A stretch of DNA of 64,000 nucleotides, taken from contig CAYQJB010000001.1 of NCBI GenBank assembly GCA_964417855.1, positions 166,709 to 230,708 on the forward strand, written 5' to 3'. The notes under the pieces are model-generated. The model ran no database searches and was not told the origin of the DNA. It saw only the letters and a program-made list of their open reading frames with translations. Of this stretch, positions 7,082 to 62,205 are shown in pieces. Source of the stretch: an uncultured Candidatus Saccharibacteria bacterium (GTDB lineage: Bacteria; Patescibacteriota; Minisyncoccia; Phycocordibacterales; CAIZLB01). A program made the translations under genes and the position numbers. Each line of letters begins with the position of its first letter. Position 1 is the stretch's first letter.

Positions 7082-7093
7082 ACCTATTTTTTA

Positions 7094-20918: not shown

Positions 20919-20920
20919 CA

Positions 20921-23476: not shown

Positions 23477-23754
23477 TGTTTATTATTTATTACTATTAAC
23501 AAACGGATGATATACAAACCAGATGAAGAACCTATAAAGATTTATTAAAGAAAAGCAAAAGAAAAGATGTACTTTTTAAGAAAAGAGACAAAATATATAG
23601 ATCACCTTCAACCTAGTGTTTCTCATGAAACGTTGAAAATGAGGTTACAAACGGGTTAAACATACAAAAAAACACCATTTAGTAGCAAAATAAGGGTTTC
23701 ATAGGAAACACCCCGTATTATTGTCAAGAAAATAGCAATATTTTACTAAAAGAC

Positions 23755-23886
23755 AGTGGATAGCCACTTATCCACACAATTAAACCTTATTTATAGCCAT
23801 ATATTGCGTTTTTCCTTATAAAATAGCATTTCTGTATAAGCCTGATTTCTATGTCTTTTATACACATATCCACGGAGTTATCCACA
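23755..23886. promoter_or_regulatory. Cluster of four DnaA-box-like 9-mers (two perfect TTATCCACA)
   Basis: Perfect boxes at 23768-23776 and 23878-23886. A 7/9 box at 23866-23874 and an inverted 7/9 box at 23755-23763. All lie in a 500-bp ORF-free region between yraN-like and the tRNA pair. Confidence 0.5.
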
Positions 23887-23991
23887 GTCTAGGACATTTT
23901 ATAAGTCACTTAGGGACAAAAATGCCGTCTCATACCAATCTTAACTACACCGCAATAACCAACCATTCTTTATGATCTAACTATCAAATTG

Positions 23992-36211: not shown

Positions 36212-37120
36212 ATGAAAAATCCAAATTTAAAAAACAACAGAAGAAGACTCACAAAACAAACAGAACAAGAAGGTTTCATTTCTTCAGGTGAGCCAGTGGG
36301 GGAAACAATGAAGGATTCTGTGTTTGCAAAAAAATCTCTTGGTCAAAATTTTTTAAAGTCCCAAAAGGCACTCAATCAAATTATTGAGGGTGCTGGTGAC
36401 CTAAGGGATAAGACAGTCCTTGAAATTGGCCCTGGAATGGGTTCATTAACCGAAAGACTAATCAAAACCCCCGCAAGCAAAATAATTCTAATTGAGATGG
36501 ATGATAGGCTAATTCCAATACTTACTGAGAAATTTGCTGATGAAATTAAAAACAAAAGAATGGAAATTGTTCATGATGATATTTTAAAAGTAAATTTAAA
36601 TTCAATTGGTCTTACAAAAGGTAATTACAGTTTGATTGCAAATATTCCATATTACATAACAGGTGCAATTATAAGAAATATTATTGGTGGTGATATTTAT
36701 CCAGAAAGAGCTGTGGTTTTAGTACAAAAAGAAGTTGCAGAAAGAATAATTTCTCGTGATAAAAAAGGAAGCCTATTGTCTATCGCCGTGAAAGCAATTG
36801 GCGATCCAAAAATAATTGGCAAGGTTCCAAAAGGTGCCTTTGTTCCATCGCCAAAAGTTGATTCCGCAATACTATTAATTGATAATATTTCAAAAAAAAC
36901 ATTTGACGAAAGTTCTAAAAAAGAAAAAAGGTTTTTTGATATCCTACACGCTGGTTTTGCACACAAAAGAAAATTATTGAAGAGCAATTTAAAAGAACAT
37001 AATATTTTTATTGATGCTGAAAAAGCATTAGAGGTGTGTAATATAAAAAGTGACGCAAGATCTGAAACATTAACATTAGAACAGTGGAAAAAATTATCAT
37101 CTCTTGATATACTTTACTAG
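36212..37120 (+). CDS. rsmA: 16S rRNA (adenine1518/1519-N6)-dimethyltransferase RsmA/KsgA
   Basis: SLGQNFL...LEIGPGMGSLT SAM-binding motif, and NIPYYIT. The true start is probably at the internal MKDSVF. Confidence 0.9.
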   Translation: MKNPNLKNNRRRLTKQTEQEGFISSGEPVGETMKDSVFAKKSLGQNFLKSQKALNQIIEGAGDLRDKTVLEIGPGMGSLTERLIKTPASKIILIEMDDRLIPILTEKFADEIKNKRMEIVHDDILKVNLNSIGLTKGNYSLIANIPYYITGAIIRNIIGGDIYPERAVVLVQKEVAERIISRDKKGSLLSIAVKAIGDPKIIGKVPKGAFVPSPKVDSAILLIDNISKKTFDESSKKEKRFFDILHAGFAHKRKLLKSNLKEHNIFIDAEKALEVCNIKSDARSETLTLEQWKKLSSLDILY

Positions 37121-37959
37121 TGAAAAATTCTAATTCTCATAATAAAGTTTTAATACTTGGTGCGATATGTATTTCAATTCTAGCTGGAGTTCTATCTTAC
37201 AGAATTGCAGATATTAAAAATCAGCAAGACTTAAATAAGCGACCAAAAATTTCTGATGTTTTTGACATAACGGGGGAAAAAGAGGACCCTACAACCAACA
37301 GAATTTTAACAGCCATAGATAATTCAAACAATTCACTTGAAGCATTGTTACCCCAAGTTGATCCATTCACAATAACAGATAGTGATTCAGCAACAGCGAG
37401 AATGGCAAAACAAGTTTATTCTGACTATGTTAATCAAGAGGCAGGAAACTCTGATCTAACCGTAGCAGACATAGCCCAGAATGCCTTAGGTCAAATGTCA
37501 GGTTCAGACATGCCAAGGCTTAAGTATAATTTTAATAATATTACACTAACCGAGAGGTCTGATAGTGAGGATTTGAGACTTTATGGAAATAATTTTGCGG
37601 AAATATATACCAGAAATTTAAACTTAGTCGCACAGAATCAACAAAAATACTCAAATAGCTTAGCAGCATTGGCGGATGTTTATGAGAATATAAGCAAGGA
37701 ATTACTCAAAATTAAATGTCCAATCGGTCTTTCTTCGTATCATCTAACAGTTGTAAATAATTTTCAAGTTCTAGCTGACTCATTTAGATTAATAGACATG
37801 CAAAGTCAAGATCCTGTTAAATCTCTTCTTGGTGTTAAATCAGCCAAGGAAGCAGGAGCCGAAAACGATCAAATGTTTATAAATATTAGTAAGTATTTTA
37901 AAAAGAATGGTATAATTTTTAGCAATAATGAAATAGGGGTGATATGGAACTCCAACTAA
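37120..37959 (+). CDS. Hypothetical membrane-anchored protein, first gene of the T4SS-like cluster (possible VirB8/PrgL-like)
   Basis: GTG start overlapping the ksgA stop; single N-terminal TM (VLILGAICISILAGVLSY). The functional assignment is positional only. Confidence 0.35.
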   Translation: MKNSNSHNKVLILGAICISILAGVLSYRIADIKNQQDLNKRPKISDVFDITGEKEDPTTNRILTAIDNSNNSLEALLPQVDPFTITDSDSATARMAKQVYSDYVNQEAGNSDLTVADIAQNALGQMSGSDMPRLKYNFNNITLTERSDSEDLRLYGNNFAEIYTRNLNLVAQNQQKYSNSLAALADVYENISKELLKIKCPIGLSSYHLTVVNNFQVLADSFRLIDMQSQDPVKSLLGVKSAKEAGAENDQMFINISKYFKKNGIIFSNNEIGVIWNSN

Positions 37960-37969
37960 ACAATTAAAA

Positions 37970-39799
37970 ATGAACAAAACAAAAGACAGCAATATTTGCA
38001 AAAAAGATGGTGGAAAAAAAATTGGCATAGTAATATTTTTTTCTTTAGCTTTTTTAATTTTTAGTTTGGGTGTCGCCAGTGCTCAAACAAATCTTACGGA
38101 CAACCCACTTTTAAATCTAGCTCCTGAACCACCAGCTGCATCAACTCAAACCAAAGTAGACACAGCAGGAGCTCCAAAAGCAACAGTAGTTACAGAGGGT
38201 GCACCAAAAGCAACAATTGTTGATGAAAGTGGGGCCAGTAACGCTTCAGCAAATAAAAGTAATACTGGAACAACGGCGGCCGCACCAGGTGGAGCAGCAT
38301 CCTCTGTAACATCAACTGGAGCTTGCGTTGGTGGTCAAATGCTTGCAAAACTAATGACAAGCGCCATTTCAGCTGGAATAGGCGCCTTAAAAGGAGGAAC
38401 AATGGGTGTTGCAGAACGTTTGTTAAATGTACCATCAACAAACGCACTAACGGAGTCAGCAAGAAACCAGGAAGCTAAATTAAATGCTGAAAATGGTATA
38501 TTTATTTTTGGTGTTCAAACTGGAATAAGTTGGGATGGAATTGCATACTGTATTGTAAACACAGTAATAGATTATATTGTTAATTCAACAATTCAATGGG
38601 CAAACTCAGGATTCAAAGGAAACCCTGCCTTTATCAGAAACCCTCAGCAATTTTTTAAGGGATTAGCAGACCAAACAGCAGCACAATTTATTAGAGAGGT
38701 TGCGTATAATGAAACAGGTATAGATGTCTGTAAGCCATTTAGAGTTGTAATTGCAACAGGTTTAGCTGGTAGTTATTCTAATTTAACAAACGGAAAGTCT
38801 ATACAGTCTTGTTCACTATCACAAATGCAGCAAACAGCAATGCAGTCAGGAAAATATTCAATAACAACCCCTACGGATTGGATTGCTTTAACAAAACCTC
38901 AGAACAATAAGTATTATTCATATATAAACGCAGGGGAAGAGATGAGCAAAAGAGTTGCTGTCAAAAATAACACAGCAAGACTTGACCTTTCAATAAACAG
39001 AGGGTTTCTTAGTTACAAAAAATGTAAAGATGAAAGCAAGCCAGAAAGCAAAACAAACCCTTGTGACACACTAACACCGGGATCAATGATTGCTGATTCG
39101 CTGTCTACAACACTAAATATACCAAAAAACAGACTTGTATCAGCTCAAAAATTTGATCAAATGGTTGATGCGATTGTGAACAACCTGATAAAGATAGCGT
39201 TGAGCAAGACGCTTGAAAGCGTAACTGGACAGGCCCCAACAGCCGCTGTTCAATCAGACTATTATAATATAGTAGCAAACAACGCAACAGCTTATAATGC
39301 TGCAAATATACCTACAGGCCCAGTTGGGCAAGGTGGAACTATAGGTACTTCCGGAGGGCCTCTTCTTCAGCAAATATTGAGTGGTGCCACTTTTTCTAAT
39401 AACGATTGGAATACCTATGCCGTACAACAATTGGTTGCATCGGGTATAGCCAACCTACCAGTTAGTGATGCTTCAACATATTTTTCAGGCGGGGTACCAT
39501 CAGTTCAAGGATACTTAAGTATAATGGCAGCAATAGCACAAAAAGAATCTGGTGGTCAAGCAAAACCAGCAAGATACCAGGAGACAAAGATTGGTAATGG
39601 TACCACATATTCAGTGGGATTAATGAGTCTAACACCCGGAGATTTGGGCACAGGAAATATGACATACGATGACCTAGAAGATCCATATAACAACATTAGA
39701 ATTGCCGTAGGAATTATGGCCAACTTAGTAAGAAAATATGGTGTTCTTCATGGGCCAAACAACACAGGATTATCAGCATATTGGTCAACGTTTAGATAG
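37970..39799 (+). CDS. Secreted protein with C-terminal SLT-type lytic transglycosylase domain (VirB1/PrgK/TcpG-like)
   Basis: Signal peptide; C-terminus AIAQKESGGQ...YSVGLMSLTPGDLG...DPYNNIRIAVGIMANL carries the SLT E-S / GLMQ / AYN-like motifs. Confidence 0.6.
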   Translation: MNKTKDSNICKKDGGKKIGIVIFFSLAFLIFSLGVASAQTNLTDNPLLNLAPEPPAASTQTKVDTAGAPKATVVTEGAPKATIVDESGASNASANKSNTGTTAAAPGGAASSVTSTGACVGGQMLAKLMTSAISAGIGALKGGTMGVAERLLNVPSTNALTESARNQEAKLNAENGIFIFGVQTGISWDGIAYCIVNTVIDYIVNSTIQWANSGFKGNPAFIRNPQQFFKGLADQTAAQFIREVAYNETGIDVCKPFRVVIATGLAGSYSNLTNGKSIQSCSLSQMQQTAMQSGKYSITTPTDWIALTKPQNNKYYSYINAGEEMSKRVAVKNNTARLDLSINRGFLSYKKCKDESKPESKTNPCDTLTPGSMIADSLSTTLNIPKNRLVSAQKFDQMVDAIVNNLIKIALSKTLESVTGQAPTAAVQSDYYNIVANNATAYNAANIPTGPVGQGGTIGTSGGPLLQQILSGATFSNNDWNTYAVQQLVASGIANLPVSDASTYFSGGVPSVQGYLSIMAAIAQKESGGQAKPARYQETKIGNGTTYSVGLMSLTPGDLGTGNMTYDDLEDPYNNIRIAVGIMANLVRKYGVLHGPNNTGLSAYWSTFR

Positions 39800-39881
39800 G
39801 GATAATGTGTAAGTTAAAAATAACCAAAATGGTTAATAAACAACTTATTATTTTTTTAAAGATGGTATATAATATTAACGA

Positions 39882-42362
39882 ATGAATCTGTTTAAAAACA
39901 CAACAATAAAAACAAAAGTTTCTTTAGTGGTGGTGTTTTTATTCTTATTTTTAACACACAATAAAGTGGTATCGGCTAGTCCGTTCGATGACCAAGTTAA
40001 AGCTGCAACACAGCAGGAGTCTGGGATTGTTAAAGACTCTAATGGCCAAATAAGTACAGCACCAGTAGGGTGGTTCTCAACTAACTATGGCGAACTATAC
40101 AATGCGGCGACCCCTGAAAAAAAAGCATTGATGACTCCAGAGATGTCAAAGTTATATGACACTATATTACCTTTAGAACAACAACTTATTGGTCTAAATA
40201 ATGATGCGAATGCAGGCAATCAAAGCCAAAGAACACAACTTGCTTTATCAATTGCACAAGCAAAAGTAGCCTTTAAGACAAACCTTGGTCTTGGTGCTAC
40301 AACCGAAGAAGCTACTGCTGCACAACTTCAAGGTCAGGTTATTTTTTGTCTAGGTGGATCCGGCGTCATTCCAACATTGAATATCCCTGGATGTATTGCA
40401 ATCGTATCATATGAAATACTATATTTAACATCTTGGGTTCTTTGGGTTGCAGCACTGATGTTTGATTGGACAATTGCATGGAGCCTTTCCATGCGAGATA
40501 TTGTTAACAGCTTTGCCGCAATACAATATGGATGGGAGACCTTTAGAAATGTTATTAACTTGTTCTTCATACTTATTCTTGTTTACATATCTATAGCTAC
40601 AATACTTCAAATAAGTGGATATGGTTACAAGCAATTACTTGGAAAATTGGTTATTGCAGCTTTTTTAATTAACTTTAGTATGTTCTTTACTGAAATTATA
40701 ATAGATCTAAGTAATATGACAGCCCTTGTTTTCTATAAGCAAATAATGGTCGATGCAGATAAGTTTGCGTCCTTAGGATCAGCTGGAGCACCAGGCGGAG
40801 CTTCTACTACAACAAATCAAAACCTTTCTCTTGGAATAATGAATGCACTTGGTTTGCAGACAATTTGGGGTGTAGGCCAAGCCAATAAAGGACTTGGTAC
40901 GGCTTCTTCATCACAAACACAAGGAAACAATCCGGCTGTAACTGGGGGAGGAAGTGTTGCTGCAGCTGGAACTGGTCAGGCTGCTATTATTGACCCTTGG
41001 AAGATGACTCTTGTTGGTCTTGGTGGATCTGTCTTCATACTAATCCTGTCTTTTATTTTCTTTGCTGCTTCCTTAATGTTTATGGTAAGGGTACTTATAT
41101 TAATTATTCTTATAATTACCTCACCAATCGCATTTTCAGCAAACGTGCTACCTGGTACAAAATTCTTGTCCGATAAATGGTGGAAACAACTCAATAGTAA
41201 TGTTTTGTTTGCACCCGTCTACATGGCTTTAATGTTTATTACATTAAAAATGATTTGGGGAGGAAGTAATCATGTTACAAACTTGCTGTCCTTGCTTGCT
41301 AACGAGAGCGCAAGTGGTATGCAATCTATAGTATTCTTCTTGTTACTATCTGCCATGTTGGTTGCCTGCCTTACTGTAGCGTCATCCTTAGGTGCAACAG
41401 GGTCTAAGACAATGCAAAGCTGGGGAAAGAGTGCTAGTTCAGGTGCAAAGAAGTTTGCAATAAACAGAGCGGCAGCTCCAGTTAGTTACATAGCAGACAA
41501 GGCATCTAAAAATGCTTTTATAGCAAGAAATGCACCTATACTTCTTCAGGGCGCAGACAAACTTGCTCAAGCAAAACTTGGTGGAACTTCAACATATAGA
41601 TCTAGAGTTGCTGATGACAAAAAGATGTATCAAGCAAGAGGGGATTTAGTTAAAAATGCAGTTACAGGAGAGCTTATCAGAGGTAGAAACGAAAGCTTAA
41701 AAGCTTTTGATGATAGAAAGAAAAACCAAACAGAAGCCGGGGAGATGGCACAAAGGAAACAATTAGGAGTGGGTGAAGGTAACGAAAACGCCTCAATGAG
41801 ATTTAATAAGGGGGCTCAACAAGCTAGACAGGATTTTATGAATAAATCTGAATCTAAAAGTAAAGACAAAGAGGTCAGTGCCGCAACGGTAGAAAAAAAT
41901 CAAAAAGAAATATCTACTGGAGCGATAGCTTTAATCTCTTCAATGAAGGCGTCTGGGGCCCTTAAAAATTTACACCCCGATGAAGCCAAAAAAACAGAGG
42001 ATATAATGAAAGAAATAACTGATGCAAGTGATGCAAAAAAAGAGGTAACACCAGAAATGATTGGAAAGCTTGTTCAAGAATCAAAGGCTCCAATTGATAC
42101 CTTATCAAAAACAATAGCAACAATGGAAAAGAACATGGAGAGATATGCAGGGGTGATTAAGAACACAAGAGATCCATCAATGCTACTTGCTGCAACTCAA
42201 AAACTTGGGGCTATGCAAGCGTCCCACACAATAGCTTCTCAAAAGAGGACTGATATTAAAAATCTTGTTGAACAACAAAAAGCTTTGGCAAAAAGGTCTG
42301 AAGATATAGCAATGCAACAAAAACTTAGAACAGTCACTGAAGAAAACAAACCTAAAGTATAA
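39882..42362 (+). CDS. Polytopic membrane protein, VirB6/TrbL/TcpH-like
   Basis: Signal peptide, then 6 or more TM helices rich in Trp/aromatic residues (YLTSWVLWVAALMFDWTIAWSL...), and a ~350-aa hydrophilic K/A/Q-rich C-terminal tail. The 826-aa size matches Gram-positive VirB6 analogues. Confidence 0.5.
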   Translation: MNLFKNTTIKTKVSLVVVFLFLFLTHNKVVSASPFDDQVKAATQQESGIVKDSNGQISTAPVGWFSTNYGELYNAATPEKKALMTPEMSKLYDTILPLEQQLIGLNNDANAGNQSQRTQLALSIAQAKVAFKTNLGLGATTEEATAAQLQGQVIFCLGGSGVIPTLNIPGCIAIVSYEILYLTSWVLWVAALMFDWTIAWSLSMRDIVNSFAAIQYGWETFRNVINLFFILILVYISIATILQISGYGYKQLLGKLVIAAFLINFSMFFTEIIIDLSNMTALVFYKQIMVDADKFASLGSAGAPGGASTTTNQNLSLGIMNALGLQTIWGVGQANKGLGTASSSQTQGNNPAVTGGGSVAAAGTGQAAIIDPWKMTLVGLGGSVFILILSFIFFAASLMFMVRVLILIILIITSPIAFSANVLPGTKFLSDKWWKQLNSNVLFAPVYMALMFITLKMIWGGSNHVTNLLSLLANESASGMQSIVFFLLLSAMLVACLTVASSLGATGSKTMQSWGKSASSGAKKFAINRAAAPVSYIADKASKNAFIARNAPILLQGADKLAQAKLGGTSTYRSRVADDKKMYQARGDLVKNAVTGELIRGRNESLKAFDDRKKNQTEAGEMAQRKQLGVGEGNENASMRFNKGAQQARQDFMNKSESKSKDKEVSAATVEKNQKEISTGAIALISSMKASGALKNLHPDEAKKTEDIMKEITDASDAKKEVTPEMIGKLVQESKAPIDTLSKTIATMEKNMERYAGVIKNTRDPSMLLAATQKLGAMQASHTIASQKRTDIKNLVEQQKALAKRSEDIAMQQKLRTVTEENKPKV

Positions 42363-42364
42363 TT

Positions 42365-43063
42365 ATGACAACATTTACAGAACAAGAATTTATAGACAAG
42401 ATGAATTTACTGCCTGCAGAGTTACAAAAAAAACTTCTTTTACTTGATTATGATGATGATTTCATTAGTATCATCAATTATAATAGTATTAAGCCAGCAG
42501 AAACTATCAACGCAATTGGTTTGGCCGTTAGGTTGGTAGCTCTTGGTTTTTCCTCAAAGCAAGAATTATTTGAATCTGTTTCTAATGAAGTCTTAGTTGA
42601 AGATGAAGCCAGACACATATTCAGTGAAATAGACAGAACAATACTAGTACCAAACAACCTTAAGGGTATTATCGAAACAGGAATAGAATTACACACTGAA
42701 GGACAAGAGGATGCAACAAACACTGAAGACAAGTATTCAACTCACAACATCACAGAAACAGCAGAAGACATTCTGAAAGAAATTGAAAATCCAACACCAG
42801 CTACGTCCTCAATGGTTTCTAGTTTTAACAAACAAACTACCACAACACTGACGGCTGTAGGGCCTCATGATCAGCTTTCAGTCGATGGTTTAACTAATGA
42901 GTCCTCAAATATTATAAAGAATCCTCAAAACACAGCAACACCAACCGATACAACACCTGCACCAAACAAAGAAGGACAACTTGAAGCAAAATTAACAGAA
43001 ACTGTGATTCAACCAGTAAAATCAACATATTATAAGGTAGATCCATATAGGGAGGAGATGTAG
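42365..43063 (+). CDS. Hypothetical cytoplasmic protein (paralogue of the next gene)
   Basis: The N-terminus TEQEFIDKMNLLPAELQKKLLLLDYDD resembles TEQFNKLPESFKTAIKASDYDK of 43095..43442. Confidence 0.35.
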   Translation: MTTFTEQEFIDKMNLLPAELQKKLLLLDYDDDFISIINYNSIKPAETINAIGLAVRLVALGFSSKQELFESVSNEVLVEDEARHIFSEIDRTILVPNNLKGIIETGIELHTEGQEDATNTEDKYSTHNITETAEDILKEIENPTPATSSMVSSFNKQTTTTLTAVGPHDQLSVDGLTNESSNIIKNPQNTATPTDTTPAPNKEGQLEAKLTETVIQPVKSTYYKVDPYREEM

Positions 43064-43094
43064 GTACCTATAAATCAATTGAATAATTAAAAAC

Positions 43095-43442
43095 ATGACA
43101 GCAACATCCATAGAAAGAAACACAGAACAATTTAACAAGCTTCCTGAAAGCTTCAAAACAGCAATTAAAGCTAGCGATTATGATAAATCACTAGCTTTAA
43201 TTTCAAAGGAACATAAACTACACATTGATCAGTCTTCTATGTTAGAGGAATTATTAGCAAAACTTATTTTTGGAGATATTGAATCTGAAGATATCATTTC
43301 TGAGATGAAATCAAAGTTAAATCTTTCAAAAGAAGAGGCAACAAAGATTGCCGCAGAACTTGATCAGATGATAATTAAAGAAATTAAACGTAATTTAATG
43401 AATATTCAGAAGGAGACAACTGTAAAAGAAGACGTAGAATAA
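43095..43442 (+). CDS. Hypothetical small protein (paralogue of 42365..43063 N-domain)
   Basis: Shared N-terminal motif as in the previous entry; 115 aa; no TM. Confidence 0.35.
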   Translation: MTATSIERNTEQFNKLPESFKTAIKASDYDKSLALISKEHKLHIDQSSMLEELLAKLIFGDIESEDIISEMKSKLNLSKEEATKIAAELDQMIIKEIKRNLMNIQKETTVKEDVE

Positions 43443-43468
43443 TTGTCATGATATAATTGTTTTGATAA

Positions 43469-43924
43469 ATGAGATATCAAACACCACAATTTATTGAGGA
43501 GGAAACAAAACTATTTGGCCCACTTACTTTTAAGCAGTTCGTATATCTAATTGGAGGAGCTGGTATCTCTTTTGCTGTATACAAAATGCTTCCGTTTCTT
43601 TTGGCAATACTAATAATCGCACCTGTTGCTGGAGCCTCGCTTGCTTTGGCTTTCTATAAGATAAATGAAAGACCTTTTATAGACGCCGTGGAAGCAGCCT
43701 TCTATTTTATTATATCAAACCGTCTTTACACGTATCAAAAAATAGATAAACCTACTCAGCAATTAAGAACTTCACAAAAGACAATGATTGCCCCCGTACC
43801 TAAGATTGGGGCATCCACAAGCAGACTTAAGGATTTGGCATGGAGCTTAGATATCAATGAGAATATAAAAGATAAAAGTAAGGACAACTTTGATATGGGG
43901 GTTAATGATAAAATAAAAATATAA
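43469..43924 (+). CDS. PrgI/TcpE-family (VirB3-like) small membrane protein
   Basis: RYQTPQFIEEETKLFGPLTFKQFVYLIGGAGISFAVYKM and a two-TM layout match the PrgI family pattern. It lies directly upstream of VirB4. Confidence 0.6.
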   Translation: MRYQTPQFIEEETKLFGPLTFKQFVYLIGGAGISFAVYKMLPFLLAILIIAPVAGASLALAFYKINERPFIDAVEAAFYFIISNRLYTYQKIDKPTQQLRTSQKTMIAPVPKIGASTSRLKDLAWSLDINENIKDKSKDNFDMGVNDKIKI

Positions 43925-43932
43925 TTAATAAA

Positions 43933-44589
43933 ATGGCATCAAATCAAGAAAATTTTTCAAAACCTACACAAGATTTTGTCCCTATAAAAGAAGTTAGAGA
44001 TGGAATTGTTATATTAAAAGATGGTTCTATGAGGGCTATTCTTCTTGCTTCTTCTATTAACTTTGCATTGAAGTCTCCTGAAGAACAACAGTCTGTTCTT
44101 TATCAGTTTCAAAACTTTTTAAATTCAATAAACTTTTCTATACAAATCTTTGTTCAATCAAGAAGACTAGATATTACGCCTTATATTAACCTTCTTGAAG
44201 ATAGAATAAAATTCCAATCAAGTGAACTTATGAAGGTTCAAACAAGGGAGTACATGGACTTCGTTAGAAATCTAACTGAGTCAGTAAACATTATGACAAA
44301 AAGTTTCTTTGTTGTTGTTCCATATTCTCCAACTGTACTTAATAAAAAAGGGGGTGTGTTTGGAGGTATGTTTGGAGGTAAAAAAACATCTAAAGAATCT
44401 GAGAATGACGAGTATCTTCAGTTTGAAGAATTTAAAAGCCAACTTCAACAAAGAGTAGAGGTTGTAGAACAAGGTCTTGTTAGATGTGGAGTTAGAATCG
44501 CTCAACTTGGAACTGAAGAAATCATTGAGTTCTTCTACAAACTCTTCAATCCAGGTACTGTTGAAAAACCAATAGATATGTCTAAGTAA
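43933..44589 (+). CDS. VirB4/PrgJ/TcpF-like ATPase, N-terminal domain (separate ORF)
   Basis: FVPIKEVRDGIVILKDGSMRAILLASSINFALKSPEEQQSVLYQFQNFLNSI resembles the N-terminal CagE/TrbE/VirB4 region of Gram-positive VirB4 homologues. It ends with a TAA 60 nt before the next ATG. Confidence 0.55.
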   Translation: MASNQENFSKPTQDFVPIKEVRDGIVILKDGSMRAILLASSINFALKSPEEQQSVLYQFQNFLNSINFSIQIFVQSRRLDITPYINLLEDRIKFQSSELMKVQTREYMDFVRNLTESVNIMTKSFFVVVPYSPTVLNKKGGVFGGMFGGKKTSKESENDEYLQFEEFKSQLQQRVEVVEQGLVRCGVRIAQLGTEEIIEFFYKLFNPGTVEKPIDMSK

Positions 44590-44649
44590 GTTTTGGTTTG
44601 TTGATATCTGGAATTTTTTTATATTTTAGAGTACAATTAAAATAATAAT

Positions 44650-46497
44650 ATGAGCCTATTAGATTTTTTAAAGAAGCCTCAAGAGGAATCTTCACCAATT
44701 AGTTCCATTCTACCTAAGGAAATTTACCAATCTGGTGTTTTAGAACTACAAGACATAATCGCACCTTCTGGTTTAAAAATAAGTCCAAAGACAATCAACT
44801 TAGGAGAGAAGATTGTTAGAACATTCTTTGTTATTTCTTATCCAAGATTTTTATCATCGAACTGGTTTTCTCCAATAATTAACCTCGACAAGGTTTTTGA
44901 TATTTCGATTTTTATACACCCAGTAGACACAGCTACTGTACTTAGACAATTTACAAAAAAAGTTGCTGATATTGAAGTTGATATAAGTACGAGAGAGACT
45001 AAGGGATTAGTTAGAGATCCGAAGTTAGATACTGCCTATCAAGACCTAGAAGAGCTGCGTGACAAGCTACAGCAGGCACAGGAGAGACTTTTTGACATAG
45101 GTCTATACATTGCTATATATGGTGAAGACGAGCAAGAATTAGACAAAATTGAATCAGAAATAAAATCTATTCTTGAATCAAACTTGGTTTTCATTAAGCC
45201 CGCCCTTTTCCAACAAGAACAAGGCTTTCAAAGTGTTTTACCAATTGGTGAAGACAAGCTTGGGGTTCACTCTAAATTAAACTCTGAACCACTATCAAGT
45301 ATTTTCCCATTTATTTCTTTTGACCTTACATCAGATAAAGGAATTCTTTACGGTATAAACAGACACAACTCAAGTCTTATTCTTTTTGATAGATTTTCAC
45401 TGGAAAACTACAACTCTGTAACATTTGCTAAAGCTGGTTCCGGAAAATCTTATCAAACAAAACTAGAGATTATTAGATCTATGATGTTTGATACAGATGT
45501 TATAGTACTCGACCCAGAACGTGAGTATGAATACCTTGCTGAAGCAACTGGTGGTAGATATTTTAATATTTCCCTAACATCAGATCACCACATCAATCCA
45601 TTTGACCTACCGGTTCCAAGAGAAGGGGAATCATCATCAGACGTTCTAAGATCAAACATTATTAACCTTGTTGGATTATTTAGAATAATGCTTGGAGGAT
45701 TAACAGCAGAGGAGGATGCTGTTGTTGATAGAGCCATCACAGAAACTTACGCCCTTAAAGATATTACTCCTGAATCAAACTTTGCAGCCGCAGAACCTCC
45801 ACTTATGTCAGACTTTGAGCTTGTTCTTAGTGGAATGGAAGGGGGAGAGTCATTAGCACAAAGACTTACAAAGTACACAAAAGGAACATGGGCTGGTTTT
45901 ATCAACAGACCATCAAACGTAGACATCAACAAGAAGTTTGTTGTTTTTTCACTTAGAGATATGGAAGAAGAACTGAAGCCTGTTGCTATGTATATTGTTA
46001 TGCACTATATATGGAACGCTATTAGAAAGGAGCTTAAGAAAAGACTTTTGGTCATTGATGAGGCATGGTACTTAATGAAATCAGAAGATACAGCTTCATT
46101 CTTGCTTGGTCTAGCAAAAAGAGGAAGAAAGTATTATTTGGGACTTGCTACAATTACACAGGACGTTGAGGATTTTTTGAAGTCTCCATACGGTCTTCCT
46201 ATTATTTCAAACTCTTCTATTCAAATCTTATTAAAGCAATCTCCATCTTCTATTGATATTGTTCAAAAAACATTTAACTTAACGGATGAAGAAAAATATT
46301 TACTTCTTGAATCTGATGTGGGGGAGGGGATGTTTTTTGCTGGTCTAAAACACGTAGCAATCAAGGTTATTGCATCCTATACGGAGAATCAAATAATTAC
46401 ATCTAAGCCATCAGAGGTTCTACAGATTAAAAAGGAAAAGGCAGAACTTGCTGCACAAAAAGAAGAGGAGATGGATAAATTAAAAAAGGTTCTATAG
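44650..46497 (+). CDS. VirB4-like T4SS ATPase, C-terminal ATPase module
   Basis: Walker A FAKAGSGKSYQT, Walker B LVIDEAWYLM, and conservation along the VirB4 C-terminal domain; 615 aa. Confidence 0.8.
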   Translation: MSLLDFLKKPQEESSPISSILPKEIYQSGVLELQDIIAPSGLKISPKTINLGEKIVRTFFVISYPRFLSSNWFSPIINLDKVFDISIFIHPVDTATVLRQFTKKVADIEVDISTRETKGLVRDPKLDTAYQDLEELRDKLQQAQERLFDIGLYIAIYGEDEQELDKIESEIKSILESNLVFIKPALFQQEQGFQSVLPIGEDKLGVHSKLNSEPLSSIFPFISFDLTSDKGILYGINRHNSSLILFDRFSLENYNSVTFAKAGSGKSYQTKLEIIRSMMFDTDVIVLDPEREYEYLAEATGGRYFNISLTSDHHINPFDLPVPREGESSSDVLRSNIINLVGLFRIMLGGLTAEEDAVVDRAITETYALKDITPESNFAAAEPPLMSDFELVLSGMEGGESLAQRLTKYTKGTWAGFINRPSNVDINKKFVVFSLRDMEEELKPVAMYIVMHYIWNAIRKELKKRLLVIDEAWYLMKSEDTASFLLGLAKRGRKYYLGLATITQDVEDFLKSPYGLPIISNSSIQILLKQSPSSIDIVQKTFNLTDEEKYLLLESDVGEGMFFAGLKHVAIKVIASYTENQIITSKPSEVLQIKKEKAELAAQKEEEMDKLKKVL

Positions 46498-46505
46498 AAA
46501 AACAA

Positions 46506-46546
46506 ACACCCCACCGCTCATTTTATGAATAGTGGGGTGTTTTTAT
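46506..46546 (+). terminator. Rho-independent terminator after VirB4
   Basis: ACACCCCAC...GTGGGGTGT stem followed by TTTTT. Confidence 0.65.
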
Positions 46547-46581
46547 ATATTATTATCTTGAAATCTGTTAATATATAACTA

Positions 46582-47043
46582 ATGAATGAAAGGCAGGCCA
46601 AAAATCAACAGCGTCTACAGAGTGGTAAACAACTTGGTCAGGATTCTTCTGTTGATTCAAAAAACAATGACACGTCTGAAGGCGGTGCTGACAACAGCTC
46701 TGGTGAAAAAAAAATTACCCAATCTGTTTTTTTTAAACTGTTAACTGTTTTACTAATTCTTGATATAATCGGATTAATTCCATTTATTGGATGGGCAATA
46801 AGCACTGTTGCATCGCTTTTAATATTTAGAAAATTTGGGGTTAAATTTCACTACAAAAACATCATGAAAGTTGGTACTTGTGACTTAGTTAAGGTAATTC
46901 CAGGAGTTAGTCTTATTCCTACTTTTGTAATGAGTGGAATTTTAACAATTGGACCTATGGTTAGCGGTCTTGGAGAAGGAATTCCTGGAGGGCAACATGT
47001 TGCAAACAAAGTACAGAAAGCTATTTCTATGACTAAAAAATAA
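46582..47043 (+). CDS. Small two-TM membrane protein (T4SS-cluster associated)
   Basis: Polar N-terminus; hydrophobic helices LLTVLLILDIIGLIPFIGWAISTVASLLIF and VSLIPTFVMSGILTIGPMV. Confidence 0.35.
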   Translation: MNERQAKNQQRLQSGKQLGQDSSVDSKNNDTSEGGADNSSGEKKITQSVFFKLLTVLLILDIIGLIPFIGWAISTVASLLIFRKFGVKFHYKNIMKVGTCDLVKVIPGVSLIPTFVMSGILTIGPMVSGLGEGIPGGQHVANKVQKAISMTKK

Positions 47044-47107
47044 AGTATTTATAAAGTTATAAACAAAAAATTACTTTCGTTGTACAATTAGTGATATAAT
47101 TAATAAG

Positions 47108-48160
47108 ATGATTAAAAAAAACAAACACTTACTTATTTCAACACTTTCTTTGATTGTTTTATTTTTAGTTTTTATTCTAATAAACAAAACAGAGGCACAG
47201 GTAGGGGATCCGTCTAGTATTCCAATTCCACAACAAATAAAGGAAATAAAGCAGCAGTTAGATATAAACATTTCCCCTGAGGTACCGGAACCAAATCAAG
47301 ACGTGACAATAACAGTGGAGGCCTATGGTTTGGATTTAAATTCCACAGATATGCAGTGGTTGATAAATGGTAAAGAAAAAGTTAGGGGTCTTGGTGAGAA
47401 AAAATTCACTTTAAATGTTGGGAACTCTGGGCAAAGTACGGTTACGTTAAACATTACACCCAAAGACCAACCTTTGATTTCCAGAGTTTTTGTTTTTAAT
47501 CCTTCCAATGTTGATCTTTTGTGGCAAGCCGAAACTTATACGCCCCCATTTTATAAAGGAAAAGCTTTATTTTCCCCAGAATCGTCAGTGACAATGGTTG
47601 CTATTCCAAATTTTATTAATGGTACCACAAGGACAAATGATTCAAATGTTGTATACAAGTGGAGTATAGACAGAGAGGTTCAGGGGGACTACTCGGGTTA
47701 TGGAAAAAATTCTTTTCAATACACATCAGATATATTGTCTCTGGATACAGAGATAGAGATCGAGGCTTATCCTTCTAGTCAACAAACAAGAAAGGGTGTT
47801 GGTAGCGCCTTGTTGTCTACAAAAAATGCTTTTCTTCTGTTTTATGAAGACAACCCAACAAACGGTGTAATGTTTAACTACTCTCTTAAGAATCAGGTTA
47901 ATTTAGGAACAAGAAACGAATCAAAGATAAGCGCCTTTCCTTTTAACTCTAGTTCAAATAGTAAAAGTTCTGGTTTAGAATACACATGGTATGTAAACTC
48001 TGAAAAGATTGATATACCGTTGAGTACAAACACAATAACAATCAAAAAGAACTCTGCTCAAAAAATTGATGTTGCAAGTATACTTGTTTCCTTATCAAAC
48101 CCTACACACATAATGCAAGAGACCCAAAATAGCATCGATTTTTTGTTTAACAATAATTAG
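47108..48160 (+). CDS. Secreted hypothetical protein (signal peptide, beta-rich repeats)
   Basis: Signal peptide MIKKNKHLLISTLSLIVLFLVFILINKTEA. No family recognised. Confidence 0.4.
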   Translation: MIKKNKHLLISTLSLIVLFLVFILINKTEAQVGDPSSIPIPQQIKEIKQQLDINISPEVPEPNQDVTITVEAYGLDLNSTDMQWLINGKEKVRGLGEKKFTLNVGNSGQSTVTLNITPKDQPLISRVFVFNPSNVDLLWQAETYTPPFYKGKALFSPESSVTMVAIPNFINGTTRTNDSNVVYKWSIDREVQGDYSGYGKNSFQYTSDILSLDTEIEIEAYPSSQQTRKGVGSALLSTKNAFLLFYEDNPTNGVMFNYSLKNQVNLGTRNESKISAFPFNSSSNSKSSGLEYTWYVNSEKIDIPLSTNTITIKKNSAQKIDVASILVSLSNPTHIMQETQNSIDFLFNNN

Positions 48161-48226
48161 TACTTTTGCACATTATTTTTCCTTCATAAATATACACAAA
48201 TCTTTATTTGTTGTATTATATTAGTA

Positions 48227-48988
48227 ATGAATATCCTTAGTAATAATAAAAACAAAATTGGTGGCAAGTTTTTAGCAGCAACAAGTATTCTGTCAATATC
48301 ATTATATTTATTTTTTGGGATTGTTAGTGTTGTGGAGGCGGTTGATTTTCCCGCTTCTTTAGGGGGAGGTTCTATGAGTCCAACAACGAACAGTGTCACA
48401 AAAACAGCCGCTCCCACACTAACTGATTGGAGTACTTTTAATTCAGGTTCAAACTATAATCCAAACTCTACCCCCAACTCTGCACAGCCAACATCTCCAG
48501 TAATAACTCCAGGCTCTCAAGCTATGCTACAACAGATGGGGCCTCCGAGCAGTGCCGCTTGTGGAATATCTGTTTCTGGTAGTGGTGGTAAAGGAAAATG
48601 GAATTATTGTATGCTTGCTCCTATAGGAGGCCTTATAGGGACACCGTCGGGAACTGGTAAGGACGCAACGGAGATTGTTGATTTGGAGAAAGGCCTACAA
48701 CCATTCTTTGCTGGGGTTTACAAAGTTGGTGTAACAGCAGCTGTTGCTCTTTCAATTCTTGTTATTTCAATAGGTGGAATTAGAATGGCAACAATAGACT
48801 CCATAACAGCCAAGGAGGAGGGCAAGAACATGATCAACGCAGCTCTTTCAGGGTTGTTTTTGGCTCTGTTTTCTTATGTTTTACTTTACACAATCAACCC
48901 AGCTTTGATTGGTAATGGGGAGGGGTCAATTTTTCCAACCTCAACAATTCAAATAAATGTAAACCCGTCAACACCAGCAAAAAAATAA
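48227..48988 (+). CDS. Candidate VirB2/TrbC-like pilin-type protein
   Basis: Signal/anchor, a polar T/S/P-rich linker, then a C-terminal ~90 aa of two hydrophobic helices (VGVTAAVALSILVISIGG ... ALSGLFLALFSYVLLYTINPAL), as in T4SS pilins. Confidence 0.3.
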   Translation: MNILSNNKNKIGGKFLAATSILSISLYLFFGIVSVVEAVDFPASLGGGSMSPTTNSVTKTAAPTLTDWSTFNSGSNYNPNSTPNSAQPTSPVITPGSQAMLQQMGPPSSAACGISVSGSGGKGKWNYCMLAPIGGLIGTPSGTGKDATEIVDLEKGLQPFFAGVYKVGVTAAVALSILVISIGGIRMATIDSITAKEEGKNMINAALSGLFLALFSYVLLYTINPALIGNGEGSIFPTSTIQINVNPSTPAKK

Positions 48989-48990
48989 AA

Positions 48991-50454
48991 ATGTCTAGAT
49001 CAAAATTAATCATCTCTATTGCACTAATATTAAGTATAGCCCTCGGTATTCTTGTTGGTATATATTTTTATACAAAAAAAACCACCCAAGGCAACCTTCC
49101 AACACAAACTGATAAAACAATCTTTGGTGGTGTTGGTGGGGTCAGAACTGATCTGCCAACAGACAACACAAACAACCCCCAAGGACAAACTACCTCTGGT
49201 ACAGAAAAACCAACAGGAACGTCAACACCAAAAGCAACCCTACTTAGAAGAATAGCTATTGGACCAATATCTGGAGATGATTTTGTCATGAGGGATGTTT
49301 TTGCAACAACAAGTAATTCTTCAACAACACAAACTGTTGGAACTTCTACAAAGAAACAAACAATTAAAGTGACTGTACCAGCTAAACCAAAACTATTAGG
49401 TCAAGAAGAAAAAATCAGATATATGGAAAGGGGAACGGGAAGAGTTTTTGAGGCTGAAGCAACAACGTCCACAATTCAAAGAATAACCAACTCAACCTAT
49501 ACAAGAACAGTTGAATCATTTTTTGACAAGAAAGGTGATAATGTTCTTTTTAGAAATCTTTTGGAAAACACAGATACCATACAAACAAGACTTGGAACAG
49601 TCTCGCTTGACACACCAACATCCACAGAATACTCTTTAAAAACAAAGGACTTTCCATATAATCTTCTTTCTGTTGTCACATCACCAGAAAAAGATTCTTT
49701 TGCATCTTATTTTGAGTCAAAAGGAGTGGGTTCTTCAATTAATATTAGTAGATTTGATGGAACAGGAGTTTTTACAGTTTATAAGTCACCATTTAGAGAA
49801 TGGTTGTTGTCCTGGCCAAACACAAATACTTTAGTTTTGAACACAAAACCTTCAACCTATTCTCCCGGCTATGCATATTCTATCAATATAAAAACCAAAG
49901 CTTTTAGCAGAATAACAGGGGGTCAAAATGGTTTAACAACGCTTGTTTCACCAGATGGTTTAAATGTTTTAGTGGGGGAGAGCATTGATGGATCTATGAA
50001 ATTAAGTATTTTAAATCTTAAAACACAGTCTTTTAGAGAGATATATACAAGAACCTTACCAGAAAAATGTGTTTGGTCTAAGTTAGAAAAAAGTGTTCTG
50101 TTTTGTGCAGCAAGTGAGTCTATTGTATACGCTCCTTACCCAGATGCTTGGTATCAAGGTTTGGTATTTTTTGATGACAATGTTTGGAAAATAAACATCG
50201 ACACACAAGAAAACAAGCTGATTGCTGTTGTTAAAGACACGGTTAAGGATGGTTTAGATATCACAAACATGATTTTAAACAAGAATGAGGACTATATGCT
50301 GCTTACAAACAAAAAAGACTTAAGTTTGTGGGGTCTTCAAATAGAGAAACCTGTTGCTGTGGTGGCCACCACAACACCTTCAAGGGTTAAAAACACAACA
50401 ACTAGCACAACAACAAAAGCCACATCGAGTAAAGCAACGAATACAAAGAAGTAA
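48991..50454 (+). CDS. Membrane-anchored T-rich hypothetical protein (last gene of cluster)
   Basis: N-terminal TM LIISIALILSIALGILVGIYFY, a Thr/Pro-rich linker and a ~350-aa extracytoplasmic domain. ATG overlaps the previous stop region. Confidence 0.4.
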   Translation: MSRSKLIISIALILSIALGILVGIYFYTKKTTQGNLPTQTDKTIFGGVGGVRTDLPTDNTNNPQGQTTSGTEKPTGTSTPKATLLRRIAIGPISGDDFVMRDVFATTSNSSTTQTVGTSTKKQTIKVTVPAKPKLLGQEEKIRYMERGTGRVFEAEATTSTIQRITNSTYTRTVESFFDKKGDNVLFRNLLENTDTIQTRLGTVSLDTPTSTEYSLKTKDFPYNLLSVVTSPEKDSFASYFESKGVGSSINISRFDGTGVFTVYKSPFREWLLSWPNTNTLVLNTKPSTYSPGYAYSINIKTKAFSRITGGQNGLTTLVSPDGLNVLVGESIDGSMKLSILNLKTQSFREIYTRTLPEKCVWSKLEKSVLFCAASESIVYAPYPDAWYQGLVFFDDNVWKINIDTQENKLIAVVKDTVKDGLDITNMILNKNEDYMLLTNKKDLSLWGLQIEKPVAVVATTTPSRVKNTTTSTTTKATSSKATNTKK

Positions 50455-50503
50455 TTAAACGAAATAAGGATTATTAACAACTTAATTAATATTTTTATAA
50501 CAA

Positions 50504-50534
50504 ACAAAAACCGCTTATTTAAGCGGTTTTTGTT
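50504..50534. terminator. Bidirectional rho-independent terminator between the T4SS-like cluster and yidC
   Basis: AAAAA-CCGCTT-ATTT-AAGCGG-TTTTT. Confidence 0.7.
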
Positions 50535-50548
50535 TGTTATTTTGTGAC

Positions 50549-51274
50549 TTATTTTATATCCTTTTTGATGGTTTTTCTAAAATATAATTCTTGGGCAATA
50601 GCAAAAATATTTGAAGTTATCCAATATAGTGAAATAGCTGAGGTTAAGCTAAATGAGATCAAAAAAACGATAGCTGGCATTGTATATCTCATTTGTACAT
50701 TCATACTTCTTGCAAAATCTTCTTGCTTTCCACCCTTACCTGTTGGAACAAAAGCTGGAACAGAGTATCTTATTTGGATGAATTGTGTAATTCCTACCAC
50801 AATACTAAGCCAAATATTCTTCTTTGTTATATCCAGTAATCCTAAAAACAAAACATTAACTATTTGTGGATTTGGAATAAAGCTATACAGTATTTGTGGA
50901 TCTATGTGAGGCAAACCTGATGTGTAAAAAATTTTTGCTAAAGAAAGGATGATGGGTAGCTGAATAAGCATTAAAAGAATACCTGAAAATGGATTTAGGT
51001 TGTTTTTCTTATAAAAATCTAACGTGAGTTTTGCTTGTTCCTCTTTATTATTAGCAGTTTTCTCTTTAATTTTATTCAACTCAGGCTCCAAAGCCTTCAT
51101 TTTCAGCTGTGTTTTAACAGAACTTTTTGATAAGGGGATTAATATAAACTTAACAACACAAGTAAAAAGGATAACAGCAACACCAAGATCAGCTCCTGGT
51201 GTGTGATTTATTATAAATACAAGTCCGTTATATAGTGGATTATAAAAAGTGAAACTAAAAAAATTTGATATCAT
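50549..51274 (-). CDS. yidC: Membrane protein insertase YidC (short form)
   Basis: YidC/Oxa1 core with conserved TM arrangement; rpmH-rnpA-yidC synteny. Confidence 0.85.
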   Translation of the reverse strand: MISNFFSFTFYNPLYNGLVFIINHTPGADLGVAVILFTCVVKFILIPLSKSSVKTQLKMKALEPELNKIKEKTANNKEEQAKLTLDFYKKNNLNPFSGILLMLIQLPIILSLAKIFYTSGLPHIDPQILYSFIPNPQIVNVLFLGLLDITKKNIWLSIVVGITQFIQIRYSVPAFVPTGKGGKQEDFARSMNVQMRYTMPAIVFLISFSLTSAISLYWITSNIFAIAQELYFRKTIKKDIK

Positions 51275-51654
51275 TGTTTTATTATATCTTCTTTTACTAA
51301 AATTTGCTTAATATCTGAAACGATTTCTCCAAAACCTGCGTTTTTTGACGTTTCTTTTGAAAGGAACACAAAAGAGGGGATTGTAGTGTTTTTATCTTCA
51401 AGCCCCAACTCTTTTATGGCTGTAACAAAAGCCTCTCTAAGCCTTCTTTTAGACTTGTTTCTATCAATAGCTTTTATACAAACCTTTTTAGAACAAACGA
51501 ACGATCCTTCCAACTGATTAACCTTATCTTTAGGCACAACAGGCCCTGTTTCTTTTTTTTCAAAAACTTTCAAAAGAAAAAAGCCTGAATTATAGGCTCT
51601 TCCTTTTTTCATTATTAAAGCAATTTGGGTTGAAGAAAGGCTTTTTATTGTCAT
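51271..51654 (-). CDS. rnpA: Ribonuclease P protein component
   Basis: KAIDRNKSKRRLREAF is the RnpA RNR motif; 127 aa; position between rpmH and yidC. Confidence 0.8.
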   Translation of the reverse strand: MTIKSLSSTQIALIMKKGRAYNSGFFLLKVFEKKETGPVVPKDKVNQLEGSFVCSKKVCIKAIDRNKSKRRLREAFVTAIKELGLEDKNTTIPSFVFLSKETSKNAGFGEIVSDIKQILVKEDIIKQ

Positions 51655-51702: not shown

Positions 51703-51837
51703 CTATACAGCCAACTTCTTTCTACCTTTTGCGCGACGAGCGGCCAAAACACGACGTCCTCCATGTGTTTCTGATCTCACAAGGAAACCATGTGTAGTAG
51801 CTCTCTTTCTTTTATTTGGTTGGTATGTTTGCGACAT
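51703..51837 (-). CDS. rpmH: 50S ribosomal protein L34
   Basis: Manual translation [44 protein letters not shown] (44 aa). It was missed by the 60-aa ORF cutoff; the plus-strand track ORF 51695..51886 is antisense to it. Confidence 0.9.
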
Positions 51838-51992
51838 AAGGAGGATATTACATCATTTTTGTTTTTTTGTAAACACCAAAAATTAGAAGTGTTGTGTTTT
51901 AAAGTCTACTAAAGTTATCCACAGGTATGAACATACTTTTATGTATAGTTCAAGTTTCTTTTAAAAAACCAGAGGGTATAATATTTAACACT
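51838..51992. promoter_or_regulatory. rpmH-dnaA intergenic origin/promoter region with a perfect DnaA box
   Basis: TTATCCACA at 51915-51923, in the divergent rpmH/dnaA intergenic region. Confidence 0.5.
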
Positions 51993-62032: not shown

Positions 62033-62205
62033 AGCATTATTTTATACTGTTTTTAGGTATTGTGCCACAAATAATTTGCATAATCCATTTTGTAAACAAG
62101 ATTACATCCTAAAATCAACATTGTTTGACGAAAGATGTTGACGAGGATACAATTATTGTATTCCTATCGTTATTTAATACGGTATTTAAAAATAATAAAA
62201 CAATT

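Follow-up and report, generated by a model that had tools for sequence, protein, structure and literature searches.

The closest described relatives of the locus reported here are the type IV secretion systems (T4SSs) of the Patescibacteria. In Southlakia epibionticum ML1, an 'apparent T4SS' encoded by SEML1_0006-0019 was found to be essential by transposon sequencing (Tn-seq) (Wang et al. 2023, Cell 186:4803; PMC10633639). It is nearest to Gram-positive conjugative systems, has essential pilins and is without recognisable coupling or relaxase proteins; its genes run in the order VirB6-like (0011), PrgI (0010), 0009 and VirB4 (0008), followed by hydrolases, and its pilins belong to PF18895 (PMC10633639). 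A survey of 3,035 Patescibacteria genomes placed 2,425 VirB4 proteins in a Patescibacteria clade nested within MPF-FATA (Quinonero-Coronel et al. 2025, Microb Genom 11:001409; PMC12102498). In that survey TrsD was the most abundant partner of VirB4 and the pair was the commonest T4SS feature; PrgI/VirB3, VirB6 and VirB2-like pilins were encoded near virB4, VirB8 was almost undetectable, an association of VirB1 with virB4 was specific to Paceibacteria, and just 109 relaxases were recorded. The virB4 neighbourhood in Paceibacteria and Microgenomatia was enriched in DnaA, DnaN, RnpA, KsgA and RpmH, and a replication-associated gene-dosage effect was proposed for virB4 genes near dnaA (PMC12102498). 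A 2025 FEMS review treats the Patescibacteria systems as a new branch of the T4SS superfamily (PMC12857230). Here we describe a cluster of 12 open reading frames (ORFs), designated A to L, in a 64,000-nucleotide stretch of contig CAYQJB010000001.1 (the window, to which all coordinates refer), which comes from a Paceibacteria (Parcubacteria) metagenome-assembled genome (MAG).

The cluster (37120-50454, all genes on the + strand) is a genuine chromosomal T4SS gene cluster beside dnaA in an ultra-small Paceibacteria bacterium of the candidate phyla radiation, and it is almost certainly an ordinary member of the known Patescibacteria class. Its composition, its missing conjugation genes and its dnaA-proximal position were all published between 2023 and 2025 and are already known. 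The initial annotation, made from the sequence alone, had listed the same twelve co-oriented genes, and the ORFs matched its coordinates exactly. It had also described loci of this type as poorly characterised, which no longer applies at the genomic level (PMC10633639, PMC12102498), and the position next to dnaA as unusual; this position is a conserved rule in the lineage and was reported in 2025 together with ksgA, rnpA and rpmH (PMC12102498). The MAG of the window is not listed in the supplements of that survey. The class of system matters, being near-universal in the candidate phyla radiation and essential for growth on the host in the one species tested. The locus adds no new kind of system, and the value of the comparison lies in keeping it from being counted as a discovery. 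Small additions are fold support for the VirB6-like protein, a triple immunoglobulin (Ig)-like domain architecture in J, a probable beta-propeller in L and fusions of pilin and hydrolase domains in orthologues.

The ATPase of the system is encoded by two ORFs, G and H. The larger one, H (44650-46497, 615 amino acids), contains the remainder of the VirB4 N-terminal domain and the P-loop domain. It matched the NCBIfam VirB4-like conjugal transfer ATPase CD1110 with an E-value of 1.8e-109; the 367 bits of this match, which spans model positions 179-733 of 752, exceed the cutoff of 325. In Pfam it matched P-loop_TraG with 3e-25. The Walker A (GSGKS, residues 263-267) and Walker B (LLVIDE, 466-471) motifs are intact, and both were present in 79 of 79 orthologues. 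In searches of PDB profiles the best solved relative was the C-terminal domain of Thermoanaerobacter VirB4 (4AG5, 5.5e-38), with TrwK of R388 far behind (8e-7). H could also be aligned to PrgJ of plasmid pCF10, itself annotated as a member of the CD1110 family, with 25% identity (E = 5e-40; H residues 37-565 to PrgJ 228-772). Since H falls in the CD1110/PrgJ family and has a Firmicute VirB4 as its best solved relative, its affinity is with MPF-FATA, as first suggested, and the system very probably derives from Gram-positive conjugation machinery of this type, with loss of the DNA-processing module.

The smaller ORF, G (43933-44589, 218 amino acids), is TrsD-like and corresponds to approximately the N-terminal 175 residues of VirB4 in detached form. 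Its NCBIfam matches were VirB4_plasma (2e-11, positions 97-233), TrsD (4e-7, positions 15-142; 30 bits, far under the family cutoff of 200), CD1110 (2-107) and VirB4_CagE (7-170), and in Pfam it matched TraC_F_IV (positions 16-175) and the TraC-like family PF26593. Because G matches just the N-terminal part of the VirB4 and TrsD models, some 175 positions, G and H together make up one full VirB4. Alignment of the G family to PrgJ with hhalign gave no signal, with sensitivity limited by the single-sequence target, and nothing usable came from a PDB profile search with the G family.

A search with H found relatives in 522 species-level genomes, and the best 80 loci were examined with 10-kb flanks. 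These loci belong to Paceibacterota, Taylorbacteria, Zambryskibacteria, Nomurabacteria and other Parcubacteria MAGs, and the VirB4 proteins of these 80 Paceibacteria species are 74-96% identical to H. In 77 of the 80 loci G has its own ORF, about 206-240 amino acids long, and the spacer between G and H ranges from 1 to more than 100 nucleotides. Most of the homologues of H, which number more than 8000, have lengths of 600-700 amino acids. The split noted in the initial annotation is thus a real, conserved two-gene arrangement. A recent frameshift or pseudogene was ruled out by its conservation with variable spacers.

Three further identities given to the products of the cluster were borne out by profile matches or fold searches. 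F (43469-43924, 151 amino acids) is a PrgI/VirB3-like protein with a transmembrane hairpin at residues 27-61 and a match to Pfam PrgI (PF12666; 5e-8, 33.8 bits against a gathering threshold of 27). B (37970-39799, 609 amino acids) is a secreted or anchored protein with a signal or anchor segment at residues 18-36 and a C-terminal SLT lytic transglycosylase domain of the VirB1 type (residues 517-591, E = 1.1e-7, 31.8 bits against a threshold of 21.3; KESGG motif at 525). As with H, the matches of B and F exceed the cutoffs of their families. C (39882-42362, 826 amino acids) is polytopic with a long hydrophilic C-terminal tail and had been called VirB6-like. It has no Pfam match of its own; a TrbL/VirB6 match was obtained for 1 of 37 orthologues and for one homologue that is 64% identical. 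Residues 1-573 were modelled with AlphaFold2 from 45 sequences; the model had a mean predicted local distance difference test (pLDDT) score of 78, and Foldseek placed TrwI/VirB6 among the top four hits of this model, with probabilities of 0.66-0.72 and non-significant E-values. Two other searches with the C family were negative: hhalign found no similarity to PrgH, again with a single-sequence target that limits sensitivity, and PDB profiles yielded just coiled-coil noise from the tail. On the basis of the modelled fold we regard C, with moderate confidence, as a putative 'extended VirB6'.

The candidate pilin is K (48227-48988, 253 amino acids), which consists of a signal peptide, a variable region and a C-terminal two-helix domain of the VirB2-like pilin type (LAPI...TINP), with transmembrane segments at residues 167-185 and 202-220. 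Its assignment, proposed in the initial annotation, is made through its orthologues: 27 of 37 matched PF18895 (T4SS_pilin; best E-value 4.7e-10) and 4 matched TrbC/VirB2. K aligns with these positional orthologues through a conserved block, Y-x-LAPLP ... GG ... GK-EGK ... TINP. A PDB profile search with the K family gave nothing usable.

The initial annotation had proposed a synteny comparison, which we carried out by tblastn of 18 window proteins against the 80 loci. The order uvrD, ksgA, A, B, C, (D), E, F, G, H, (I), J, K, L, yidC(-), rnpA(-), dnaA, dnaN was recovered in nearly all loci with enough flanking sequence. Every locus with enough downstream flank had yidC-dnaA after the cluster, and ksgA was located 5' of it in 40 of the 80 loci, which are all those with enough flank. 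H was detected in 80 loci, G in 77, F in 76, J in 73, C and L in 60 each, yidC in 55, dnaA in 51, K in 50 and B in 49. Median identities over the 76 more distant loci were 78% for VirB4, 59% for the TrsD-like protein, 58% for DnaA, 55% for UvrD, 47% for DnaN, 46% for YidC, 45% for PrgI and 27-36% for the envelope proteins. VirB4 is thus the most conserved protein of the neighbourhood, and its identity exceeded that of DnaA in 47 of 47 genomes, a contrast that is somewhat inflated by the choice of loci by VirB4 similarity. These values suggest that the cytoplasmic motor evolves slowly and the surface parts evolve rapidly. Since the gene order recurs across related loci and VirB4 is more conserved than DnaA, the comparison favours vertical inheritance of a core locus under strong purifying selection over a mobile element.

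The same data bear on the possibility that the cluster is part of an integrated conjugative element, with its coupling protein, relaxase and oriT located outside of the window. The VirB4 family does occur in conjugative elements of Firmicutes, and VirD4-like genes are present elsewhere in most Patescibacteria genomes (PMC12102498). However, the core genes on both sides of the cluster keep their order across about 80 species, and the lower divergence of VirB4 than of DnaA in the same genomes is what is expected for a vertical core gene. Neither is there a compositional signature: the cluster has a G+C fraction of 0.358, and the remainder of the window 0.346. The neighbourhood of the cluster yielded neither an integrase nor att-like repeats, and the sole recombinase is an Xer-like gene 9 kb upstream. 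Relaxases are also rare in Patescibacteria as a whole, at just 109 in the 3,035 genomes surveyed (PMC12102498). Because of the synteny, the composition and the missing mobility genes, a conjugative element is exceedingly improbable and essentially excluded for this locus.

We also searched the window for genes that would process or recruit DNA. The Pfam scan covered all major non-overlapping window ORFs of at least 90 amino acids, and none of these matched VirD4/FtsK, relaxase or Rep families, with T4SS-DNA_transf, TraG-D_C and FtsK_SpoIIIE included among the models. No coupling protein or relaxase was thus found in the 37 kb upstream of the cluster or in the 13.5 kb downstream. No oriT-like inverted repeat was found in the intergenic regions; strong inverted repeats are limited to two terminators and a non-conserved palindrome inside a gene. 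The initial annotation, which had reported none of these elements in the window, agrees with this result. It had proposed a non-conjugative role, already the favoured reading in PMC10633639 and PMC12102498, and this role is supported here with high confidence.

One form of such a role is DNA uptake by a competence-type T4SS like ComB of Helicobacter pylori or the archaeal Ced system, which would import host or environmental DNA as a source of nucleotides or as genetic material. The lack of coupling protein and relaxase matches in the window fits this possibility, as do comM, two PilB-like ATPases, PilC and pseudopilins in the same window, and these organisms are unable to make nucleotides. In the class ABY1, moreover, T4SS loci adjoin comF, recG and radA (PMC12102498). 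H even matches part of the CedB model weakly (E = 1.5e-10), but the score is 40 bits where the cutoff is 700 and the match is confined to the P-loop, and neither CedA/A1/A2 nor ComB-specific partners were recognised in the Pfam and NCBIfam scans. In Southlakia, type IV pili and comEC are both needed for competence; comEC can be lost, whereas the T4SS is essential (PMC12857230; PMC10633639). Because comEC is dispensable there and the T4SS is not, the essential role of the Southlakia T4SS is not transformation, and we consider DNA uptake to be an improbable function of the present locus.

On whether the non-conjugative system has a protein or effector as its substrate, as opposed to DNA or no substrate at all, our judgement is evenly balanced. 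Established T4SS biology suggests that F would anchor a hexamer of VirB4 (G and H) to the membrane beside a channel formed by the VirB6-like C, and B would open the cell wall locally. VirB4 would drive the extraction of K pilins and their polymerisation into a short filament or conduit, and the Ig-like J and the propeller-like L, together with A and I, would form or decorate the extracellular part. By analogy with Southlakia, such a machine may support an episymbiotic way of life by moving proteins or other macromolecules into or out of a host cell on contact, and it is probably essential here too.

Alternatively, the VirB4/VirB3/VirB6 core might do no more than assemble a pilus or surface structure: a VirB2-type filament, together with Ig-like and propeller proteins, would attach to the host envelope or penetrate it, and no dedicated substrate would be translocated. 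The pilin gene is conserved in the cluster, the second transcription unit (I, J, K and L) encodes envelope or surface proteins alone, many orthologues of K carry peptidoglycan-hydrolase domains behind the pilin domain, and a coupling protein that could recruit substrates is missing. Against this alternative, adhesion is already provided in these bacteria by type IV pili (PMC10633639; Xie 2022, cited through PMC12857230), and known T4SSs that lack a coupling protein, such as Ptl and the VirB system of Brucella, still secrete proteins (PMC12102498); nor do the present data tell a filament from a conduit. A function confined to pilus assembly therefore seems quite unlikely.

The hydrolase domains were located directly behind the pilin domain in 8-12 of the 37 K-position orthologues and comprise NlpC/P60 (4), CHAP (3), SLT (2), VanY (1), YkuD (1) and Amidase_5 (1). 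Examples are found in loci L009, L012, L014, L019, L049 and L056 of our set (L012:13757-14836 and L009:13774-15240). Most of the other orthologues carry C-terminal extensions of no assigned family, one group of which shares the motif GGTE...HWHV; a PDB search with one HWHV-extended orthologue gave no meaningful match. The K protein of the window has no extension. One speculative and, in our view, doubtful explanation is that the VirB2-like subunit of Paceibacteria, beyond its pilin role, carries enzymes that degrade the cell wall, either in the membrane or on a filament. A filament decorated with hydrolases would then drill through the wall of the host, or of the cell itself, and open an exchange conduit for auxotrophic cells, and in the clade of the window the enzyme would have moved to the separate SLT protein B. 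The pilin-hydrolase fusions are not mentioned in the main text of PMC12102498, and no description of the carrier idea was met in the literature consulted.

Several points weigh against reading the locus as a non-conjugative T4SS with a role at the host interface. A VirB8-like component was not found among the proteins compared, J, which is Ig-like, and A, whose profile is unlike PrgL. The K protein of the window is itself below the Pfam pilin threshold and has no Pfam match of its own. A coupling protein could lie elsewhere in the genome, and VirD4-like genes in most Patescibacteria genomes are usually far from virB4 (PMC12102498). Finally, both essentiality and host interaction would be extrapolated to Paceibacteria from a single Saccharibacterium.

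The remaining cluster proteins are accessory, and 8 of the 12 products have no Pfam match of their own, in agreement with the estimate that more than half lack a recognisable family. The topologies proposed earlier were reproduced in a Kyte-Doolittle sketch, which gave one N-terminal hydrophobic segment each for A, B, J and L, a polytopic C, a hairpin in F, two transmembrane segments in I, a signal peptide and two transmembrane segments in K, and no such segments in D, E, G and H. A (37120-37959, 279 amino acids) is bitopic, with one N-terminal transmembrane segment and an extracytoplasmic domain of about 250 residues. It matched no Pfam, NCBIfam or PDB profile, and hhalign of the A family revealed no similarity to PrgL, a single-sequence target with the limited sensitivity that this entails. 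Positional orthologues of A were present in 35 of the 80 loci at 21-33% identity.

D (42365-43063, 232 amino acids) and E (43095-43442, 115 amino acids) are cytoplasmic proteins that had been described as paralogues. Their families could be aligned with hhalign at 86% probability (E = 5e-6 over 88 columns), corresponding to a shared domain of about 90 residues that is N-terminal in D. Orthologues of E occur in 34 of the 80 loci and are often 230-320 amino acids long. A 17-bp near-perfect inverted repeat inside gene E (43163-43202) was considered as a regulatory or oriT-like element and rejected; even the closest relatives do not share it, and it is probably due to chance.

I (46582-47043, 153 amino acids) is a small membrane protein with two predicted transmembrane segments. 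A small ORF with 2-4 hydrophobic segments is located at this position, between virB4 and the gene for the Ig-like protein, in almost all loci, the equivalent position having been considered in about 40 of them, and its sequence diverges so fast that tblastn recovered I in just 7 of the 80. The proteins at the I position matched no Pfam family and were not pilin-like by Pfam. J (47108-48160, 350 amino acids), the most widely detectable accessory protein, has an N-terminal signal or anchor followed by three domains with a tentative Ig/FnIII-like beta-sandwich fold; the fold is Ig-like and not NTF2. L (48991-50454, 487 amino acids) has an N-terminal anchor, a linker rich in threonine and serine and a domain that is probably a beta-propeller. 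All 12 matches of L in the PDB profile search were TolB beta-propellers, with weak E-values of 0.025-0.5, and single orthologues matched DUF5050, Kelch_4 and PD40.

The cluster is plausibly organised as two transcription units. The first probably also takes in ksgA/rsmA (36212-37120, +; 16S rRNA dimethyltransferase, Pfam RrnaAD 2e-46), the conserved neighbour 5' of the cluster, given that the stop codon of ksgA and the GTG start codon of A share 1 nucleotide (TAGTG). It ends at an intrinsic terminator 3' of virB4 (46504-46542, +), a hairpin of -19.6 kcal/mol (z = -4.9 versus shuffled sequences) followed by a T-run. The second ends at a bidirectional terminator between L and the convergent yidC (50497-50540), with perfect arms of 21 nucleotides and about -26 kcal/mol (z = -9.9) on each strand. 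Both had been placed, at 46.5 and 50.5 kb, in the initial annotation, and folding confirmed them. They were identified by reading and folding the intergenic DNA; a scan for consensus terminators detected neither.

In the conserved downstream flank, yidC (50549-51274, -) and rnpA (51271-51654, -) were identified with Pfam, as was dnaA (51927-53324, +), which has one perfect DnaA box at 51915; dnaN was also confirmed. The gene rpmH (51703-51837, -) is called in an identical public contig. The sequence of the locus is identical to that of contig JBAXXP010000001.1 of MAG GCA_037127815.1 and to metagenome contigs of JGI.

The cluster had been described as lying directly beside oriC. It does lie beside dnaA; the origin, on the other hand, had been placed from dnaA only, and the densest cluster of DnaA boxes in the window is found at 23740-23890, in an AT-rich spacer of 515 bp (23477-23990) next to tRNA genes. 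Within 140 bp this cluster holds two perfect TTATCCACA boxes (23768 and 23878), TTATACACA (23858), an inverted GTGGATA and an ATCCAC core. The dnaA region has the one perfect box at 51915 and three boxes with one mismatch in the dnaA-dnaN spacer. Because DnaA boxes are densest at 23.74-23.89 kb, the real oriC may be situated about 28 kb from dnaA. GC skew tracks gene orientation over the 64 kb and gives no position for the origin. The cluster is origin-proximal under either placement.

The other genes of the window are housekeeping genes, among them pgk, tpi, nusA, tig, clpP, rny, hup, cca, xth, rpsO, uvrD/pcrA, ksgA, yidC, rnpA, dnaA, dnaN, ruvB/ruvC and a gene for a class A penicillin-binding protein. 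Type IV pilus genes are located at both ends of the window and include two genes for PilB-like ATPases (8824-10608 and 60323-62032), pilC (7568-8779) and three pseudopilin-like ORFs (5998-7564). Together with comM (31153-32736), they are consistent with the pilus-dependent competence described for Saccharibacteria. A Peptidase_C39-like ORF (374 amino acids, 19848-20972, -) overlaps the gene for tRNA-Gly(TCC) (20921-20994) by about 50 nucleotides, and its true start is probably further downstream. Among the housekeeping genes there is also a gene for a protein with an ORF6N domain (2057-2587, -), a domain found mainly in phage antirepressor-type proteins, and there are three ORFs of 386, 374 and 475 amino acids with no Pfam family (4808-5968, -; 29476-30600, +; 62125-63552, +).

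Among classical conjugation systems, the Prg/Pcf system of Enterococcus faecalis pCF10 resembles the locus in its CD1110-family VirB4 (PrgJ), its PrgI family protein, its cell-wall hydrolase and the order VirB6-like, VirB3-like, VirB4. The initial annotation had likened this order to both prgH-I-J and tcpH-E-F. The former comparison is correct, whereas tcpH-E-F is presumably not the literal gene order of pCW3. The pCF10 system is borne by a plasmid and has a VirB4 in one piece, PrgL (VirB8-like), PcfC (VirD4), the relaxase PcfG, an oriT, LPXTG adhesins and no pilin. The locus described here is instead chromosomal and syntenic across species, with a split VirB4 and a VirB2-like pilin, and no coupling protein, relaxase or VirB8 was found in the window. 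A small homologue of the VirB4 N-terminus beside the VirB4 ATPase is shared with the Trs system of Staphylococcus aureus pGO1/pSK41 (TrsD and TrsE), the only classical MPF-FATA subclass with this arrangement; pGO1 is, however, a conjugative plasmid with relaxase and coupling protein and without a VirB6 homologue.

The likeness to the Patescibacteria systems is closer. Southlakia shares the core order VirB6-like, PrgI, TrsD-like, VirB4, followed by envelope proteins, as well as PF18895 pilins, an origin-proximal position (locus tags directly after dnaA) and a cluster without a recognisable coupling protein or relaxase. As a Saccharibacterium it differs in having an array of six pilin genes and lysozyme and glucosaminidase hydrolases downstream of virB4, whereas the present cluster contains a single pilin gene and its SLT protein is encoded upstream. 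Only for Southlakia has essentiality been shown, and the comparison of the two clusters covered the core genes. The Paceibacteria T4SSs of PMC12102498 share with the locus an MPF-FATA VirB4 with an adjacent TrsD-like ORF, PrgI/VirB3, VirB6, a VirB2-like pilin, VirB1 together with virB4, no relaxase or coupling protein nearby, and dnaA, dnaN, rnpA, rpmH and ksgA as neighbours. Nothing of substance differs: the VirB6 of the window escapes sequence profiles and is recognised by its fold, and accessory proteins left unassigned in that survey receive tentative folds here, a triple Ig-like architecture for J and a probable beta-propeller for L.

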